A stretch of 64,000 bases of DNA from Candidatus Thermosaccharophagus tengchongensis. Its GTDB lineage: Bacteria > Armatimonadota > Fervidibacteria > Fervidibacterales > Thermosaccharophagaceae. This document shows, in pieces, positions 18,001 through 27,000 of the stretch. Position numbers: made by a program. Positions within the stretch are counted from its first letter, which is position 1. The number at the start of each line of letters is the position of its first letter. The stretch lies in the NCBI GenBank assembly GCA_032161105.1, contig JAVHTD010000008.1; one strand, given 5' to 3'.

Positions 18001-21000
18001 CAATGCCAAGGTCAAACCCGCCGAGCTGCCCAATGTAATCAACCCGTGTCAGCAAGTCCTTCCCCTTGAAGTAGTCCGCACCAATTCGCAACATTGAGTT
18101 GGTTCCAAAACGATGCATGTGCTCCCAGCGGAGGTTTCTCTCAGACCTCGTTAGCGCCTCAAGCAAAATTACACCCTCGCCATTCCCACCGAGCACATAG
18201 TTCTCCTCAAATGAGATTGTAAACCCGGGGCGATAAACGCCAAACCCATGGCTGCCAAAATATTGAAGCCTTAGTGCGCCCGTGCCCTTCGTATCGGCGT
18301 GGAAGTATAGAGGGAAGTCAATCTGCAACCCGCCATAGGAGTTGTATGAGATGATTTGGTTTGCAAAGCCCCTTGAGGTCATGCGCAAGCCGTAGGTTGA
18401 TAGCGGGATGACATGAATTGGAAGCGAAATAAGTTTGTTGCCTTTGGCATACAGCTGCGCCCTACGAAGGACTATTTTCTCGCCCGGGTAGATGACGATC
18501 TCCTTCGCCCTTATCCAAGTTTGGTCAATGCTGTAATCCGGTTCGGGAGCATACACCCTCGGCATCTTCTCTTCGTCCTCAATTACCGTGAGCCATCTTA
18601 TGCCGAGCTTCTTCGGCTGCGGCGCAGTTTGAATCATCGTGCCCTCCTGACGCTCATAGTCAAGCACCAATCTGTCGCAGGAAAGCCTATTCTCGCCGCA
18701 TGTGATGGTGACGGAGTTCTTTCCGGCTTCGCCCTCGGCGATGAGTATGCGCCTGTCCAAGAAGACATTCATCCTGACATCGCACTCAACTGTGACGCCC
18801 ATGTGGATGAAGCGGGCGTAACCGCTTGCGGTGATAAAGCTGTCGCTTGGTGAATACGCCAAGTAATCTCCCTTGACGATGATGAGGTTGGCGTTTCTTG
18901 ACATTGCAGCCTGTGGTGGGAGCAGGCGCACTTCAACTGACTCGCGCGAGACACCGAAGAATGCGGTCACAACAGCTATGCCGGGTGTCGTCCCGCTGCG
19001 CAGCGTCACCCTTGCAACTTTGTTTCGCAGTATGGCACTCGGCTCTATTGTTGTATCCGGCATTGAGCTTATGAAGCGCACCTCAGTCCCATCCGGTATT
19101 GACGGGTCATCAACTTGCACGGTGATGATGCTTGTGCTTTTTCCATTCGCCGGGATCTCCTGAGGCGTGGCTGTGATGAGGAATCTGATTGGTTGGAATG
19201 GTTGTGGCTCACACAGTGCTCTTTGGCACTGAGTTAACAATGACACCAGCAGCGTGTATATGAGCGCATTCAAAATTAGAGCACCCTTATGCTGCATGCT
19301 GTCCATCACCTGCGGATCTCGTTGAAGGGCATCGTCGGAAAAAATTTTGCCCACAATGTGCGCCCTTGAAACTGTGCCATCACAGCGGCGGAAGGACAGG
19401 CATCATTACATGATGGATGAGTTTTCCAACAGCCCAACCCAAATTATAAGTGGTGCTAACTGCGCAAAGCGTGAAGGCATATGGGGTGAGCAAGAGCAAA
19501 GAGCGATATAAGTCGGTGCGCATGTTCATCTATCGCATCCTGATACCGCTTCTGCGCATTGCTGCGAAAGTTCTGTTTGGGTTAAGGGTTTATAATGCCA
19601 ACTTGGTGCCGAGGATTGGCGGGATCATAATTGCATCCAATCACCCAACATATCTTGATCCGCTGTTCATAGGTTGCGCTTGTCCGAGGAGGGTTTCATT
19701 TGTAGCGAAGCGCCCCATCTTCAACATGCCATTACTCAGGACGCTCCTATGGCTTGACGATTGCATTCCCGTCTCAAGGGGCGCAGGTGATATTGGTGCA
19801 TTGCGTGAGTGCATCAAGAGGTTAAAATCTGGCGAGGTCATCGCCATCTTTCCGGAGGGCACAAGGAGCGATCATGGCAGAATGCGCCAGTTCACGCACG
19901 GCGCTGCGCTGCTTGCTCAACTTAGCGGATGCCCGATTGTGCCGTGCGCCATCATTAATGCCTATCCTGCGTGGCGTTTGAATGCGCCGTTGCCAAGACC
20001 GCATTGGCGTGTTGAGGTGCGCTTCGGTGAGCCAATTACGGTTGAGCAATGTGACCCGGAATTGAGGGAGATCATCATCCAAAGGGCGACTGATGAATTG
20101 ATGGCTCGGATGAGGCAGCTCGGGGTTCATTGATCTTGAACTAAGAGTGTTTGCAGCCCTTGCCCAATTAAGGCAAGATGAAGATGAGGTGAGTTTTGGC
20201 GATGGGAAGTCAGTGTGATAAACATGAGGGTCAAAACGGCATTGAGAGTGTTGGGGTAAGGCATATAGCCTTTACGGCTGTCGTCGGGATAGCTCTCCTG
20301 CTGCGCTGGCTCAACATCGTTCAGAGCCTCTTCGGGATTGACTTTGCCGCAATCATAGCAGCTATCGGCGGCTACAAATTCTTCTACGAGACCATTTATG
20401 AGCTCCTGTTTGAAAGGCGGATTGCAACAGATGCCGCTGTGGCGGTGGCATCAGCGGCGGCACTTTATGTCGGGGAATACTTCGCCGCCGCTGAGGTCAT
20501 ACTCATCATGCTCATCGGTGAGGCGCTTGAACATTATGCCGTTGGTCAGACGAGAGCCGCATTGAAAGAGCTCGCAAGGGCAGTCCCATCAATCGCTCAT
20601 TTGGTCAGGGATGGCGAAGTTGTTGATGTCCCGGTCAGTGACATCAAAGTGGGTGATGTTGTGCTTGTGAAGCCGGCTGAGCGCATCCCGATTGATGGAG
20701 TTGTGGTTGATGGCTCCTCAAGTGTTGACGAGAGCACGATAACCGGGGAACCGCTGCCGTCGGACAAATCCGCCGGAGACAAAGTTTACGCGGGGACAGT
20801 CAATCAGGCAGGCATACTCTATGTTCGCGCTGAGGCAGTCGGCGGAGAGACAATCGTTGCGAGGATAATGCGCATGGTTGAGGAAGCGCGTGAGCGCAAA
20901 GCTGAAATTGAACGAGTCGCCGATAAGTATGCGCGCTGGTTCTTGCCAGCCGTTATGTTGGCAGCTGCGATCACATTTTTGTTGAGTAGGGATTTGATGC

Positions 21001-24000: not shown

Positions 24001-27000
24001 GCGCAAGCAATGCGCATCTATGCCGATGCATACAAGCGTGACCCGGAGTTTTATCGCTTCCTGCGAACGCTTGAGGCATACAAGAAGGTGCTAAATGACA
24101 AGACCACGGTCATACTGTCGGCTGACTCGGAGTTGATGAAGCTGCTCACACAAGGACAGGAGATTGGGACGAAGGATAAAGGGAAGAGGTGAGCAAGGAT
24201 TGAGGCGAAGGGAGTTTTTGATGCTTCCACTCGGCGTGGTGATGTGTGAATTCCTGAAAGGTTGCGGCGGCTCATCAAATGGGTTGCAAAGTGAGCAGCC
24301 GAACATCGCGCAGCCCGACATCATCCTGACCGGTAATGAGAGCGAGCTGGCTGAGCAGGTGCGTCTCGGTTATGCCAAGCTTCACGAGATGGCTGAAGGC
24401 GCAAGGGAATACCTTCGCATCGGCTTTTACGGTAGTAGGCGAGAGGTCTTGAGGATGCACCTTTGTGAGCCAAAAGGGGGCGTTGCAAATTACAAGCATG
24501 TTCGCCTCGTGAGGGAGTCAACTGGGGAGGCTGTTAGGCTTGTTTGGGGCTGGGATAAGCTCAAGCCGCAGATACGATTCGTTAATGATGACGGCGAGTT
24601 GCTCACGATCAATGGCGTGGAGATGGAGTTCTGGGTAACGGATGCCAAAGGGAGGTTGCCAACAAACAGCATTGATTGGCTTTCGCTCGGCGCAAAGTGG
24701 TTGGCAGTTGGATTTGCAATATGGCTTGGGGCGCAGGTGGCAAAGCTTGTGGTGTCGGCGATTGCCTTCCTTGCATTTAGCGCAATGGTTGTTGGTGCTT
24801 TAATGATGGCAGCCGGCATTGCGAAGTCAATACTGGAGCTGACCGGTTGGACTTTTGATGATGTCAAAAACTTCTTGGTGAGGGCAGTTGAGGAACTTGC
24901 CAATGCGCTGCTTGAGGGAGCTAAGTTCATAGAGCAAGTGCTTCCCGGATTGGCTGCATAGAAGAAGGTAACTTACATCGCCATTTGGACATGGGTTGGT
25001 GATTTGCTCATGAGGAGGGCAAGCAGGACAGCCTGTGGCGGTGCCGTGTTAGTCCTTGTGTTAGCCATCATTGCGTTTGTCCATTTGTGCTCTTGCAAGC
25101 GCGCTGAGCGAAGAACAGCCGGAGAGAGTTTGACGCTCATAATCATCTCGCCACATTGGGATGGCATACAGCGTGAATTCACATGGGCTTTCCAAGAGCA
25201 TTACAAGCGGCGCTTTAAGAAGCATGTTGAAATACGCTTCCCAGATGTTGGTGGGACTTCACAATGCCTCCGATACATACGCACCAGCTTTAAGGAGAGT
25301 CCAAATGGCATCGGCGCCGACATGTTTTGGGGCGGTGGAATTGACCCATATGTTGAACTCAAGCGTGAGGGCTTGCTTGTGCCATACAAGCCGCCGGACG
25401 AAATTTTAAATCACATACCGAAACAGGTGGCGGGCATACCGCTCTATGACGAGGATTATTGCTGGTTTGGGACTGCGCTCTCCGGGTTTGGAATATTGTT
25501 CAACAAAGTTGTGTTGCGCGAGCACAACCTCCCGGAGCCAAAAGAGTGGGTTGACTTAGCTGACCCGAAGTTTTACGGTTGGGTTGAGCTTACGGACCCG
25601 AGGCAGAGCGGCGTTGCGCACATGATGTTTGAGATAATCCTACAGGCTTATGGTTGGGAGAAGGGGTTTGAGGTCATAGCTATGATGTCCGGCAATGCAA
25701 GGGCATACAATCGCGGTTCGCAGGAGCCGGTTGAAAGCGTGGCGAATGGACAGGCTGCCTGTGCGCCAACGATTGATTTCTATGCATGGTCAAAGATAAA
25801 CGAGGCCGGCAGTGACATGCTCGGCTTCGTTTACCCGAAGAACATGACGGTGATCAACCCCGATGGCATTTCAATCCTCAAGGGATCGCCACATAAGGAG
25901 GTCGCGCAGGAGTTCATCAACTTCGTCCTTTCAAAGGAGGGGCAAAGGCTCTGGATGCTCCCGAAGGGAGCAAGGGGCGGACCAAAGGAATTCACACTCG
26001 CAAGGATGAGCATACTTCCGGAGTTGTATGATGAGCTGAAGGGAAGAAGCGTTTTGGATGTCAACCCGTTCGAGTGGAAGACTACCATGCACTACGATGC
26101 TAAGCTCGGCGCTGACAGGTGGGAACTGCTCAACAGCCTCATTGGTGCACTATTCGTTGATGCGCATGAGCAAGTGCGTAAGGCATTCTCGGCGTTGATT
26201 GAAGCCGGCATGCCAAATAAGCTGCTCAGAGAGTTTGCGCGAGTGCCATTGGATGAGACACAAATGATGAAACTCGCCCAAAGATGGGTTAGGGATAAGT
26301 TGCTCTCAAGCAAGTATGAGGCTGAGTGGGCTTCTCAAGCGCAAGCAAAATACAAGCGCATAATTGAGCTTGCACGAAAGATGAGAAAGTAGCCGCGCAC
26401 CATCTGAAGTTGATGGCGATGCTTTACGGTGTAAATCAGAGGATGTCCTTCAGCACTTCCCTTTGTAGTTCAAACAGCTTTTCAATCCCAGCCCTTGCAA
26501 GCGCAAGCAGGCGTATGAATTGCTCCTGAGTAAATGGTGCTCCTTCGGCAGTTGCTTGAACTTCCACAAACCTGCCGCCCTCAAGCATTGCCACATTCAT
26601 GTCAACGGATGAGCGTGCGTCTTCCTCATAGCACAAGTCAAGCATTTCCTGCCTGTCAACTATGCCGACGCTTATTGCTGCCAAGAGACCATGAAGGGGT
26701 AAGGCTTTACTTGAGAGCAAGTTTTGTTCGCGCATCTTGTGAAGCGCCTCAACAAGCGCAACGAATCCGCCGGTGATCGCAGCCGTCCTCGTCCCGCCAT
26801 CGCTTTGCAACACATCGCAGTCAATGATGATTGAGTGCTCACCGAGTGCGGATAGGTCAACAGCTGCCCTCAATGCCCTCCCGATTATGCGTCCTATTTC
26901 AACTGAGCGTTCATGCTGGCGACCTCGCTTAGCCTCACGCTCGTTCCTTTGCGTTCCCGACCTCGGGATCATCCCATATTCGGCGGTTATCCAACCGGTC

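Follow-up and report, generated by a model that had tools for sequence, protein, structure and literature searches.

The locus analysed here raises the question of why a metal-transporting ATPase should end in an HflK-type protein, and what such a chimera does in the membrane. It lies in a window of 64,000 nucleotides (the whole stretch of DNA analysed) from Candidatus Thermosaccharophagus tengchongensis. The fusion hands the poorly understood HflK/HflC membrane cage a defined, testable client.

A metal pump continued into HflK

The survey's finding was a P1B-type ATPase, devoid of the usual N-terminal metal-binding domain, that is fused to an HflK-type tail and followed by HflC. Pfam and NCBIfam (TIGR01525, TIGR01933 and TIGR01932) bear out this architecture (Table 1). 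In g00883, whose ATG is preceded at 9 nt by GAGGTGA, Pfam detects E1-E2_ATPase (128-297, 1.9e-55), Hydrolase (314-533, 1.1e-29) and Band_7 (684-891, 4e-22), and the P1B ATPase model TIGR01525 scores 577.9 bits against a cut-off of 346. In a PDB sequence search, the CopA match (7r0g, 3.5e-116) covers aa 74-624; the closest solved relatives of the pump are CopA (393 bits), the P1B-4 pump 7qbz (348) and ZntA (319). AF2 models the ATPase part with a pLDDT of mostly 85-95; its eight TM helices are MA, MB and M1-M6, and the A, P and N domains are all present. It carries the motifs TGE (181-183), CPC (276-278), DKTGT (320-324) and GDGIND (520-525), together with N579 and N588 in M5 and H609-Q610-x-S612-S613 in M6. 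The metal-binding head is indeed missing, neither an HMA domain nor a CxxC motif being present in the first 150 residues (Pfam, sequence). In tblastn against S. meliloti 1021 pSymA, g00883 gives a match of 43.2% over aa 93-638, under which no feature is annotated; this bears only indirectly on the 44% identity to ActP stated in the survey. A second P1B pump of the same genome, on contig 37, shows by eye a ZntA-like pattern.

Among 87 full-length fused homologues, DKTGT and CPC are present in all, GDGxND in 86 and TGE in 84. Since these catalytic motifs are intact, the pump part has been selected as a pump, and g00883 is predicted to be an active metal-translocating P1B ATPase. The fused pumps share with the described P1B subgroups (CopA-type Cu+, ZntA-type Zn/Cd/Pb and CoaT-type) the eight-helix core, MA/MB and CPC in M4, but differ from them in lacking a metal-binding head and in bearing an HflK tail. 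All 87 combine CPC and the headless N-terminus with an invariant M6 His-Gln, which replaces the Met of CopA and also appears in nearly all fused rows of a separate listing of relatives. This combination fits the signature of CopA as little as that of ZntA, and M5, which is devoid of Tyr-Asn and Lys, departs from the subgroup signatures too.

Beyond the pump, an Arg-rich linker of variable length follows; the alignment of the 87 homologues shows here mainly gaps or columns without conservation, the distance from L624 to G681 ranges from 39 to 77 residues (median 64), and AF2 gives it a pLDDT of 61-71 with two short helices. In the alignment, the ninth TM helix (TM9) corresponds to residues 80-100 of the E. 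coli HflK chain, where that protein has its TM segment. With positive charges on its N-terminal side, it is predicted to carry the chain from cytoplasm to periplasm, N-in/C-out as in HflK. In the AF2 model the tail (HflK1) consists of an SPFH domain (682-860), coiled-coil helices (865-937 and 939-954) and a disordered C-terminus (961-1017). The hflK model TIGR01933 scores 196.7 bits on aa 683-969 (cut-off 159.4), E. coli HflK (7vhp_E) matches aa 763-993 at 1.5e-35 in the PDB sequence search, and the alignment of the tail with E. coli HflK reaches 4.5e-37.

Table 1. Features of the fused locus and of the free HflK gene (window positions unless a contig is named)
Feature	Position	Strand	Basis or remark
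PlsC-type acyltransferase gene (context only)	19450..20133	+	Pfam PF01553; 68 bases 5' of g00883
g00883, pump::HflK ORF, 1017 aa	20202-23255	+	ATG at 20202 kept; alternative start 20196
P1B-type ATPase part, aa 1-624	20202..22073	+	Pfam, NCBIfam, PDB CopA match, motifs, AF2
Cytoplasmic linker, aa 625-661	22074..22184	+	Sequence, alignment of 87 homologues, AF2
Ninth TM helix, HflK-type membrane anchor, aa 662-679	22185..22238	+	AF2 helix, HflK alignment
HflK1 tail of g00883	22245..23252	+	Band_7, TIGR01933, E. coli HflK match, AF2
g00884, HflC-type subunit, 311 aa	23257..24192	+	TIGR01932; Band_7 27-214
265-aa ORF, possible operon member	24164..24961	+	Translation; RRxFL, LKGC
Free HflK (HflK2)	contig 36, 348-1319		TIGR01933, 218 bits

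A three-part unit that recurs across phyla

g00884 begins one base past the stop of g00883. It scores 206.6 bits on TIGR01932 hflC (cut-off 134.4), and a profile search of its own genome brings no other HflC above that threshold. This genome (97% complete) encodes a single HflC, a single FtsH and two HflK proteins, one in the fusion and one on contig 36, so g00884 has only these two K-type partners. The survey had described two SPFH parts wired to the pump. The fusion to HflK and the adjoining HflC were upheld but the number was not, a third part, HflK2, lying right 3' of HflC in 13 of 16 loci with a visible fusion (10 intact ATPase fusions, one broken and five CDF). The remaining three are L018 and L019, relatives of our genome, and L025, at a contig end; two further loci cut at the contig start also have the order HflK-HflC-HflK2. 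In our genome and in its relative G005 the free HflK is on another contig than the fusion. Both free proteins fall inside the HflK2 clade (98 SH-aLRT, IQ-TREE quick, 83 rows; also FastTree, 251 rows), whose members elsewhere sit directly 3' of HflC; therefore, the unit is pump::HflK1 + HflC + HflK2.

The architecture was found in 4/4 genomes of the genus and also in numerous assemblies made independently, which rules out an assembly artefact. A search with aa 640-1017 as query among proteins of 559-1780 aa (E<=1e-10) returned 200 proteins. Among the 120 matches listed, 88 carry PF00122+PF00702+PF01145, nine, N-terminally cut, carry PF00702+PF01145 only, and 23 are CDF-type (PF01545+PF01145), exactly the number formerly counted by eye. 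This repeat search and the locus survey confirmed that the fusion recurs across phyla. The 150 best 50%-identity tail representatives comprise 43 ATPase, 34 CDF, three ArsP-type and 70 of neither kind; the SO_0444/ArsP-type Cu/Zn permeases are thus a third transporter family with this tail, the ArsP-type portion of the fusion exceeding the NF033936 cut-off. In a tail-profile search, an HflC-type gene stood directly 3' of the HflK-type gene in 80/80 loci.

Ordinary HflK and HflK2 form a supported clade that includes none of the fused tails (97, IQ-TREE quick, 83 rows; FastTree also), so one special HflK lineage has probably changed transporter partners. Thus, the presence of the tail on CDF efflux proteins stands, but not its independent recruitment there. 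The starred set of the FastTree tree (251 rows) contains 54/54 ATPase, 38/39 CDF and 3/3 ArsP tails; in the rooted IQ-TREE tree the fused tails form an unresolved grade, not a supported clade. The cassette HflCs cluster together (97 SH-aLRT, IQ-TREE quick), g00884 grouping with those of two other cassettes (97 SH-aLRT). Taken from these comparisons, the cassette appears to be a dedicated module.

With respect to the neighbours, the PlsC-type gene also adjoins the fusion in L018 and L019. The 265-aa ORF has, by eye, an RRxFL (Tat-like) motif, a lipobox and hydrophobic C-terminal segments, and matches no family in Pfam or NCBIfam. It is kept at the same place in L019 (265 aa), is shortened in L018, and has no counterpart in the cassettes examined from other phyla; its membership of the system is uncertain.

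A proposed ring around the pumps

The best known relative is the HflK/HflC-FtsH complex of E. coli (7vhp, 7wi3, 9cz1/9cz2). The likeness includes the equivalog models passed by the tail and g00884, the N-in single TM helix, the periplasmic SPFH domain and coiled coil, and the K-then-C gene order. Here, in contrast, a whole transporter sits on the HflK N-terminus, a second dedicated HflK is present, and the fused tails fall outside the ordinary HflK clade, both systems coexisting in some genomes. By analogy with this complex, we give a probability of about one half to the reading that g00883, HflC and HflK2 form an HflK/C-type ring that confines several tethered pumps and governs their stability or activity. 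A single chain would join the pump to the cytoplasmic N-terminal end of a specialised HflK, and the flexible linker and TM9 would bring the SPFH/coiled-coil part to the periplasmic side, where E. coli HflK also has it. The translationally coupled HflC and the unlinked HflK2 would most likely join it, HflC alternating with HflK1 or HflK2, so that each ring would tether several pumps. Such a ring could keep the pumps in a bounded membrane patch, control their stability or activity and possibly present them to, or shield them from, the single FtsH of the cell. Several points weigh against it, among them the unresolved grade of the fused tails and the separate hflK-hflC pairs described below. A 24-mer with twelve bulky pumps would have little room for them (our own idea is that HflK2 could act as a spacer between them); HflK2 is unlinked to the other two genes in this lineage, so co-expression is not assured; and Arg191, cited for the E. 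coli HflK-FtsH contact, counts out as Ala in the printed alignment, the contact not being mappable.

A precedent for scaffolded pumps is found in the mycobacterial PacL1-CtpC platforms ('effluxosomes'), where a small membrane scaffold/chaperone is encoded beside a P1B ATPase. According to the available part of PMC9374683, PacL1-type scaffolds are needed for P-ATPase stability, abundance and clustering in membrane foci, which form without a flotillin homologue. However, PacL is a DUF1490 protein, not SPFH; there is no fusion and no HflC or FtsH link, and FtsH and SPFH have 0 occurrences in that text.

The survey's cage that holds FtsH is assumed for this unit. If FtsH were the main partner, the tether could serve regulated turnover, holding the pump within FtsH reach so that proteolysis adjusts its amount to metal status, with no further effect of the scaffold on transport; this we consider rather unlikely. 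The type members of the equivalog models modulate FtsH, the FtsH of this genome has a periplasmic domain of ~80 aa between two TM helices, and in Salmonella FtsH degrades the P-type ATPase MgtA, helped by the peptide MgtR. In E. coli, HflK/C can both enhance and reduce the breakdown of membrane proteins by FtsH and shifts the levels of these substrates (PMC12048511, in the part available). However, no FtsH gene was found within the fused loci examined, and for an ATP-driven pump conserved with intact motifs it would be costly to be tied for good to an adaptor for degradation. Moreover, 3/5 other genomes searched (G001, G002 and G004) also have, apart from the cassette, an hflK-hflC pair on which FtsH could rely. 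These pairs score 264-288 bits on the HflK/HflC models, against 181-248 for cassette parts, so in such genomes the cassette may have left the FtsH job to the pair.

Metal supply and other alternatives

The confined-pump reading has also to be set against a role in metal supply instead of detoxification, to which we give a low probability: the cassette would be a metal-starvation response whose transporter, in need of the SPFH ring, moves Zn, Fe or Cu for envelope metallation (or inwards, as has been claimed for HmtA). The P. aeruginosa hmtA locus PA2439-PA2435 (PaFlo5-7 and HmtA) is, by published descriptions, alike in having three HflK/HflC-family genes and a P1B ATPase. As far as the accessible parts of the sources tell, PA2439 (HflK family), PA2438 (HflC), PA2437 and hmtA (PA2435) are induced 5.6- to 14-fold when zinc is depleted (PMC4542158), PA2438 and PA2439 proteins are higher in Zn-depleted cells (PMC11761036), the co-induced locus has a promoter bound by Zur (PMC4542158; PMC8531726; PMC11761036), and a review reports that HmtA imports metal (PMC8456098). 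There, the genes are separate, with the SPFH genes first. In its gene content it resembles the cassette without the fusion, a likeness on which the published work does not remark; the words 'ATPase' and 'Zur' have 0 occurrences in the available text of the P. aeruginosa SPFH paper (PMC13086221). The triple mutant of the SPFH trio showed, in that text, only subtle phenotypes under the tested conditions, which weighs against the ring reading as far as a likeness by description allows. No paper on a pump-HflK fusion was found in the literature searched; the survey's statement that such a link had not been described holds for the fusion, but a P1B ATPase co-regulated with three HflK/HflC-family genes was already in print.

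Also in favour of supply, feoB lies directly 5' of CDF::HflK in three of five CDF loci (L022-L024), an orphan SBP_bac_6-type binding protein is encoded two genes 3' of the cassette here, in L018 and in L019, and the M6 His-Gln replacing the CopA Met speaks against simple Cu(I) detoxification. However, L022-L024 are closely related (IQ-TREE) and thus count as about one observation, hmtA is likened to the cassette by gene descriptions, not by sequence, and no Zur- or Fur-like box was found upstream of g00883, where the sole palindrome is not conserved in relatives. The survey's term 'exporters' fits the default of the CDF, SO_0444 and P1B families, and a single paper underlies the claim that HmtA is an importer, but the feoB and hmtA contexts point to metal supply in some cases.

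An accidental or neutral fusion of operon neighbours, with independent halves and the ATPase merely giving HflK extra membrane anchorage, is very improbable. In its favour, adjacent-gene fusions are common and a Fusobacteria plasmid carries an ATPase gene and an SPFH gene in this order without fusion. Against it, the tail has its own TM helix (AF2) and so needs no further anchor, several phyla have retained the fusion together with an HflC and an HflK2 of its own, nearly all of the closest relatives of the ATPase part are fusions too (about the first 53 matches listed), the 87 full-length fused pumps share a private M6 signature, and the same tail lineage occurs on three unrelated transporter families. 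The plasmid in question, pZRK30-2 of Fusobacteria bacterium ZRK30 (CP102407.1), has a P1B ATPase gene and, 12 bases beyond it, a gene for an SPFH/Band 7 protein. Its pump, in contrast, is CopA-like (M6 MAFSS), and its single SPFH protein is distant to HflK or HflC (37-41 bits). This pair, known from one record only, adjoins a 'metal-sensitive transcriptional regulator'.

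The fused pump and its tail

The survey's finding of a P-type ATPase fused to an HflK-type protein and followed by HflC is real and proved to be more structured than first described. In the g00883 protein, Pfam recognizes the E1-E2_ATPase (residues 128-297), Hydrolase (314-533) and Band_7 (684-891) domains. The P1B family model TIGR01525 of NCBIfam gives 577.9 bits (cut-off 346), and the solved relative of residues 74-624 by sequence is CopA (3.5e-116). The motifs of a P-type ATPase are present, namely the phosphorylation motif DKTGT (320-324), the TGE of the A-domain (181-183) and the hinge motif GDGINDAP (520-527), together with CPC (276-278) as the CPx-type motif in M4. 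Neither an HMA domain (Pfam) nor a CxxC motif (sequence) is found in the first 150 residues. Among 87 full-length fused homologues, DKTGT and CPC are retained in all, TGE in 84 and GDGxND in 86. As judged from these motifs, the pump of g00883 looks active.

The helices of the ion site set the fused pumps apart. In M5, N579 is present in 84 and N588 in all of the 87 homologues; in M6, H609-Q610 is invariant and followed by x-S-S, with SS in 56 of the 87 and SA, AS or GS in the others. The signature of CopA-type pumps (P1B-1) is Tyr-Asn in M5 with Met-x-x-Ser-Ser in M6; that of ZntA-type pumps (P1B-2) is Lys in M5 with Asp-x-Gly in M6. Set against these signatures, g00883 was rejected both as a CopA-type Cu(I) pump (N579...N588 without Tyr in M5, H609-Q610-V-S-S in M6) and as a ZntA-type Zn/Cd/Pb pump (no Lys in M5, no DxG in M6). 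CopA-like rows of the same alignment show MAFSS or MALSS in M6. With the CopA equivalog NF007952 the score is 380 (cut-off 1316), and with the ZntA model NF033775 it is 383.6 (cut-off 1240); the subfamily model TIGR01512 is exceeded (468.8 vs 313.5), and so is the copper model TIGR01511 (457 vs 397). A plain Cu(I) pump is argued against because His replaces the soft Met ligand, and also because the tail is shared with a CDF protein whose two HxxxD motifs (read by eye) are of the zinc type. When the ATPase part alone was used as query, the best rows, about 53, were all HflK-fused, and the M5-M6 alignment of the matches shows HQ in nearly every fused row and HE in one. The nearest unfused pumps (about 610-650 aa) carry FCPC...HN(A)GS or CPG...HEAS, CopA-like MxxSS rows ranking later in this search. 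For metal biology, the fused pumps make up a subgroup of P1B pumps that is marked by an M6 signature of its own and by the lack of a metal-binding head.

An AlphaFold2 model of g00883, based on an alignment of 60 fused homologues (mean pLDDT 80.6), contains a P1B core of eight helices (13-36, 48-71, 77-90, 93-125, 235-262, 265-297, 561-596 and 602-624) that ends at residue 624. Beyond it lie two short helices in a region of low confidence (633-660), then a ninth transmembrane (TM) helix (662-679), an SPFH domain rich in beta structure (682-860), two long helices (865-937 and 939-954) and a disordered end. The linker is rich in Arg (SRRRAELLPRLNRMALRFK...) and poorly conserved, and in the 87 full-length fused homologues 39-77 residues (median 64) separate the M6 end from the Gly ahead of the SPFH domain. 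Since the eight helices end with the chain in the cytoplasm, the ninth would, according to the model, carry the SPFH part to the outside.

The tail (residues 683-969) exceeds the HflK equivalog TIGR01933 with 196.7 bits (199.9 in the genome search; cut-off 159.4), and the solved relative of residues 763-993 by sequence is E. coli HflK (1.5e-35). The model and the alignment agree with the layout of HflK: a single N-in TM helix, a periplasmic SPFH domain and a long coiled coil, with hflC as the next gene. The topology is that of E. coli HflK, whose TM helix and SPFH start align with residues 665-723 of g00883 and whose residues 80-137 and 145-369 align with the tail. A two-residue insertion, Ala-Asp (residues 892-893, window 22875-22880), interrupts the conserved PPxE-VVxAF of the g00883 tail in comparison with five close homologues.

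The cassette, its distribution and its origin

The genome of Candidatus Thermosaccharophagus tengchongensis (2.74 Mb, 97% complete) exceeds the HflC cut-off at one place only, g00884, which begins one base after g00883 and adjoins its HflK-type part. Two places are over the HflK cut-off: the fusion itself and, on contig 36, a free gene for 323 aa that has no HflC beside it. There is one FtsH. There are two P1B pumps, g00883 and a 651-aa protein on contig 37 with CPC and, by eye, a ZntA-like M6 (ADMGTS); a search with TIGR01525 gave no pump of the CopA type in this genome, at its completeness of 97%.

Coordinates of the fused gene, its partners and related features
Feature	Location	Strand	Remarks
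P1B ATPase::HflK fusion, g00883	window 20196/20202-23255	+	ATG at 20202 gives 1017 aa
HflC-type gene, g00884	window 23257-24192	+	HflC equivalog TIGR01932, 206.6 bits vs cut-off 134.4
265-aa ORF after HflC	window 24164-24961	+	RRREFL (Tat-like), lipobox LKGC, hydrophobic C-terminal segments
Free HflK gene	contig 36 348-1319		
Second P1B pump	contig 37 (L014) 1237-3192		
ORF of ~155 aa	L020 10437-10901		
ORF of ~155 aa	L021 8588-9061		
ORF of ~155 aa	L026 10177-10659		
ORF of ~155 aa	L031 10030-10539		
ORF of ~155 aa	L036 4926-5399		
ORF of ~155 aa	L074 9904-10368		
ORF of ~155 aa	L076 9884-10369		
ORF of ~155 aa	L094 9908-10381		
ORF of ~155 aa	L033 3509-3991		
feoB 5' of CDF::HflK	L022 609-2630		
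feoB 5' of CDF::HflK	L023 445-2154		
feoB 5' of CDF::HflK	L024 2757-4466		
Decayed fusion copy	L076 5041-8029		split into three ORFs
Decayed fusion copy	G008:C318:3380-6535		two in-frame TAA codons; one of the 20 phylum-survey matches
Unfused pump-SPFH pair	L102 (CP102407.1, plasmid pZRK30-2) 2296-5697		cultured Fusobacteria

An artefact of assembly or a frameshift was discarded, the same architecture being present in all four genomes of the genus and in many independent assemblies. The tail homologue search of the survey was reproduced: the 120 rows listed comprise 88 with PF00122+PF00702+PF01145, nine with PF00702+PF01145 (cut N-terminally) and 23 with PF01545+PF01145. Among the 150 best tail representatives at 50% identity, 43 tails are on ATPases, 34 on CDFs, three on SO_0444/ArsP-type permeases (Pfam PF03773, over the cut-off of NF033936) and 70 on none of these. 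Named carriers belong to Armatimonadota/Fervidibacterota, Acidobacteriota, Gemmatimonadota, Verrucomicrobiota and Planctomycetota. Within the phylum, a sample of 301 genomes gave 20 matches reaching about residue 965 or beyond. They come from each of the four genomes of the genus, from eight sister-family genomes and from eight genomes in six other families; four more sister-family genomes hold contig-cut pieces only.

One genome per species was scanned with a tail profile, A2, which is smaller than a first profile (A1, 21 rows) that was too diverse. The HflC-type gene lies immediately 3' of the HflK-type gene in all 80 loci obtained. These loci include ten intact ATPase fusions, one broken fusion (L076), five CDF fusions and 61 ordinary free pairs; in three more (L033, L035 and L056) the contig starts within the HflK-type gene. 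A second, free HflK gene (HflK2, the fused tail being HflK1) stands right after HflC in 13 of the 16 loci with a visible fusion. The other three are L018 and L019, from relatives of the present genome, and L025, at a contig end; the contig-cut loci L033 and L035 also have the order HflK-HflC-HflK2. In one locus (L032, 885 aa), the HflK ORF has a long extension at its N-terminus, which fits no family and probably stems from an ORF called too long.

In the window, a transporter fused to an HflK1-type tail is followed by HflC, and HflK2 is absent directly 3' of it, this slot being taken by the 265-aa ORF. HflK2-clade genes are found off the locus, on contig 36 here and on contig 31 of a relative (G005), and both proteins fall inside the HflK2 clade (98 SH-aLRT). 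On contig 36 (L001, 2762 bases), the end of an ORF with glycine-rich GFG...GFG, by eye reminiscent of Cas6, lies 5' of HflK2 (3-281), and a convergent, HEAT-repeat-like ORF of 455 aa lies downstream; a CRISPR array next door would account for the contig break.

Two trees rooted on HflC were built, one by FastTree (251 rows, after the short rows P0180 and P0229 had been dropped) and one by IQ-TREE in quick mode (83 rows, a hand-chosen and partly random subset). HflK2 is sister to ordinary HflK (97) and, unlike ordinary free-standing HflK, every fused tail falls outside that pair in both trees. The starred set of the FastTree tree holds all 54 ATPase tails, 38 of 39 CDF tails, the three ArsP tails, four cut rows and 14 rows labelled "free"; of the latter, at least P0127 is a fragment, which opens with the end of an ATPase M6. 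In the rooted IQ-TREE tree the fused tails as a whole are an unresolved grade and not one supported clade; 18 of 20 ATPase tails group together (support 92), as do the ArsP tails (96), and the CDF tails are scattered. The g00884 protein groups with the HflCs of one ATPase cassette and one CDF cassette (97), apart from ordinary HflCs. The survey had taken the tail to have been joined to ATPases and, independently, to CDFs; the CDF carriers (23 rows) confirm that the tail is on CDFs too, but to judge from the trees, ordinary HflK was probably not captured several times over. We read HflK1, its HflC and HflK2 as probably one old module that swapped transporter partners.

Five further genomes, each searched in full, were of two kinds. 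Two Acidobacteriota chromosomes and a Gemmatimonadota MAG carry an ordinary hflK-hflC pair (264-288 bits) besides the cassette (181-248), and in a Bryobacterales genome and a Fervidibacteria relative, like in the present genome, the cassette parts alone are over the cut-off. Therefore, the cassette represents a paralogous system, and some lineages have no other HflK/C.

Neighbouring genes and regulation

Here and in close relatives, a gene for a PlsC-type acyltransferase lies upstream of the fusion, and HflC is followed by the 265-aa ORF and an orphan SBP_bac_6-type binding protein. The 265-aa ORF has no Pfam or NCBIfam family match; L019 has it at the same length (265 aa) and L018 in a truncated form (158 aa). 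In nine Acidobacteriota cassettes, HflK2 is followed by another, conserved ORF, whose product of about 155 aa has a TM helix at the N-terminus and matches no Pfam family. This ORF is absent from the window and may be a fourth component of those cassettes. In three related MAG loci, feoB, encoding a ferrous iron transporter, is directly 5' of CDF::HflK on the same strand.

Neither an FtsH gene nor a metal regulator was seen among the fused loci examined, and the region upstream of the locus in the window gave no Zur- or Fur-like box with conservation in relatives. A 6-3-6 palindrome (CATCATTACATGATG, window 19403-19417) in the divergent intergenic region 5' of the acyltransferase gene was rejected as a regulator box, as it is not kept in L018 or L019. 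Promoter and terminator scans gave sites no more numerous than in shuffles.

A scaffold with one defined client

How SPFH cages (HflK/C, prohibitins, stomatins and flotillins) affect membrane proteins within or near them is still debated, in part because these cages have numerous, ill-defined clients. In the present case, a single defined client, a metal pump that is driven by ATP and has an assayable activity, is welded to the scaffold, and the arrangement is kept in three unrelated transporter families and with two extra scaffold subunits. The analysis shows that the pump is intact, that its tether is cytoplasmic and flexible, that the periplasmic subunit is of the HflK type, that HflC is coupled to it and an HflK2 dedicated to it, and that the design recurs with three transporter families; that such a fusion is neutral is very improbable. 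Fused pump and scaffold are an architectural variation on two well-known kinds, the HflK/C scaffold and the P1B pump.

By homology, the three SPFH proteins would form a ring of the K/C type in which HflC alternates with HflK1 or HflK2. We suggest that HflK2 dilutes the bulky fusion, so that a pump would be present at some ring positions only. Since the tether is cytoplasmic, the ring of TM helices may enclose the pump or leave it outside. Most likely, the ring would confine the pumps and govern their stability or activity, and FtsH may or may not take part in it. In mycobacteria, PacL1-CtpC platforms show that a non-SPFH scaffold can be required for the stability and clustering of a P-ATPase (PMC9374683). 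With three genes and FtsH, the system is minimal, and stoichiometry, the position of the client inside or outside the ring and the effects on activity and turnover are directly measurable.

A purely FtsH-mediated turnover of the pump is an unlikely explanation. By hand count of the printed alignment, the position of the published FtsH contact of HflK, Arg191 of E. coli, is Ala; the neighbouring Arg193 lies opposite an almost invariant Arg, and Arg185 opposite Leu in g00883. A complex prediction with the HflK1 tail (residues 655-960) and the N-terminal 135 residues of the genome's own FtsH scored 0.00; made without control runs, it is weighed neither way. The HflK model of PMC12048511 leaves out the first 78 residues, and this missing N-terminal end is where the pump is attached in g00883.

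A role in metal supply under starvation is similarly doubtful, and would have its analogue in the hmtA locus of P. aeruginosa, where SPFH genes and a P1B ATPase gene share one locus by gene content. There, PA2439 (HflK family), PA2438 (HflC), PA2437 (HflC family) and PA2435 (hmtA, the P1B ATPase) increase 5.6- to 14-fold upon zinc depletion (PMC4542158). The proteins PA2438 and PA2439 are also increased in zinc-depleted cells (PMC11761036), and HmtA is listed as an importer of Zn and Cu in a review (PMC8456098). In a 2026 study the trio is named PaFlo5-7; it describes subtle phenotypes of the triple mutant and mentions neither the ATPase nor Zur (PMC13086221). The survey had considered a physical link between SPFH/HflKC proteins and metal efflux to be undescribed. 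This holds for the transporter::HflK fusion, of which no published report was found by titles and abstracts, but the co-induction in P. aeruginosa (PMC4542158) already brings SPFH genes and a P1B ATPase together. The P. aeruginosa locus foreshadows the fused cassette, and the latter suggests that the long-known, unexplained SPFH genes of the zinc-starvation hmtA locus may be partners of its pump.

It is quite improbable that the HflK1/HflC/HflK2 ring is no FtsH accessory but a dedicated cage, in which several wall-tethered metal transporters (P1B, CDF or SO_0444-type, interchangeably) would discharge into, or draw from, an enclosed membrane patch and periplasmic chamber. If true, such a private compartment would be an SPFH-based inner-membrane "metal organelle", in which metal is handed to envelope proteins or kept from flowing back.

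Close pump relatives without the tail, three from the same order (L124-L126, M6 HESSA) and one from another genome (L127 in G242, M6 HQVSG), have no SPFH neighbours. Their neighbours are glycosidases, XdhC and a GTPase, and thus they give no bridge to an unfused cassette. A search of plasmids gave a single unfused pump-SPFH pair, in a cultured Fusobacteria strain, in which a gene for a CopA-like ATPase is followed 12 bases on by a Band_7 gene; genes for an "LDCC motif putative metal-binding protein" and a "metal-sensitive transcriptional regulator" lie near it.
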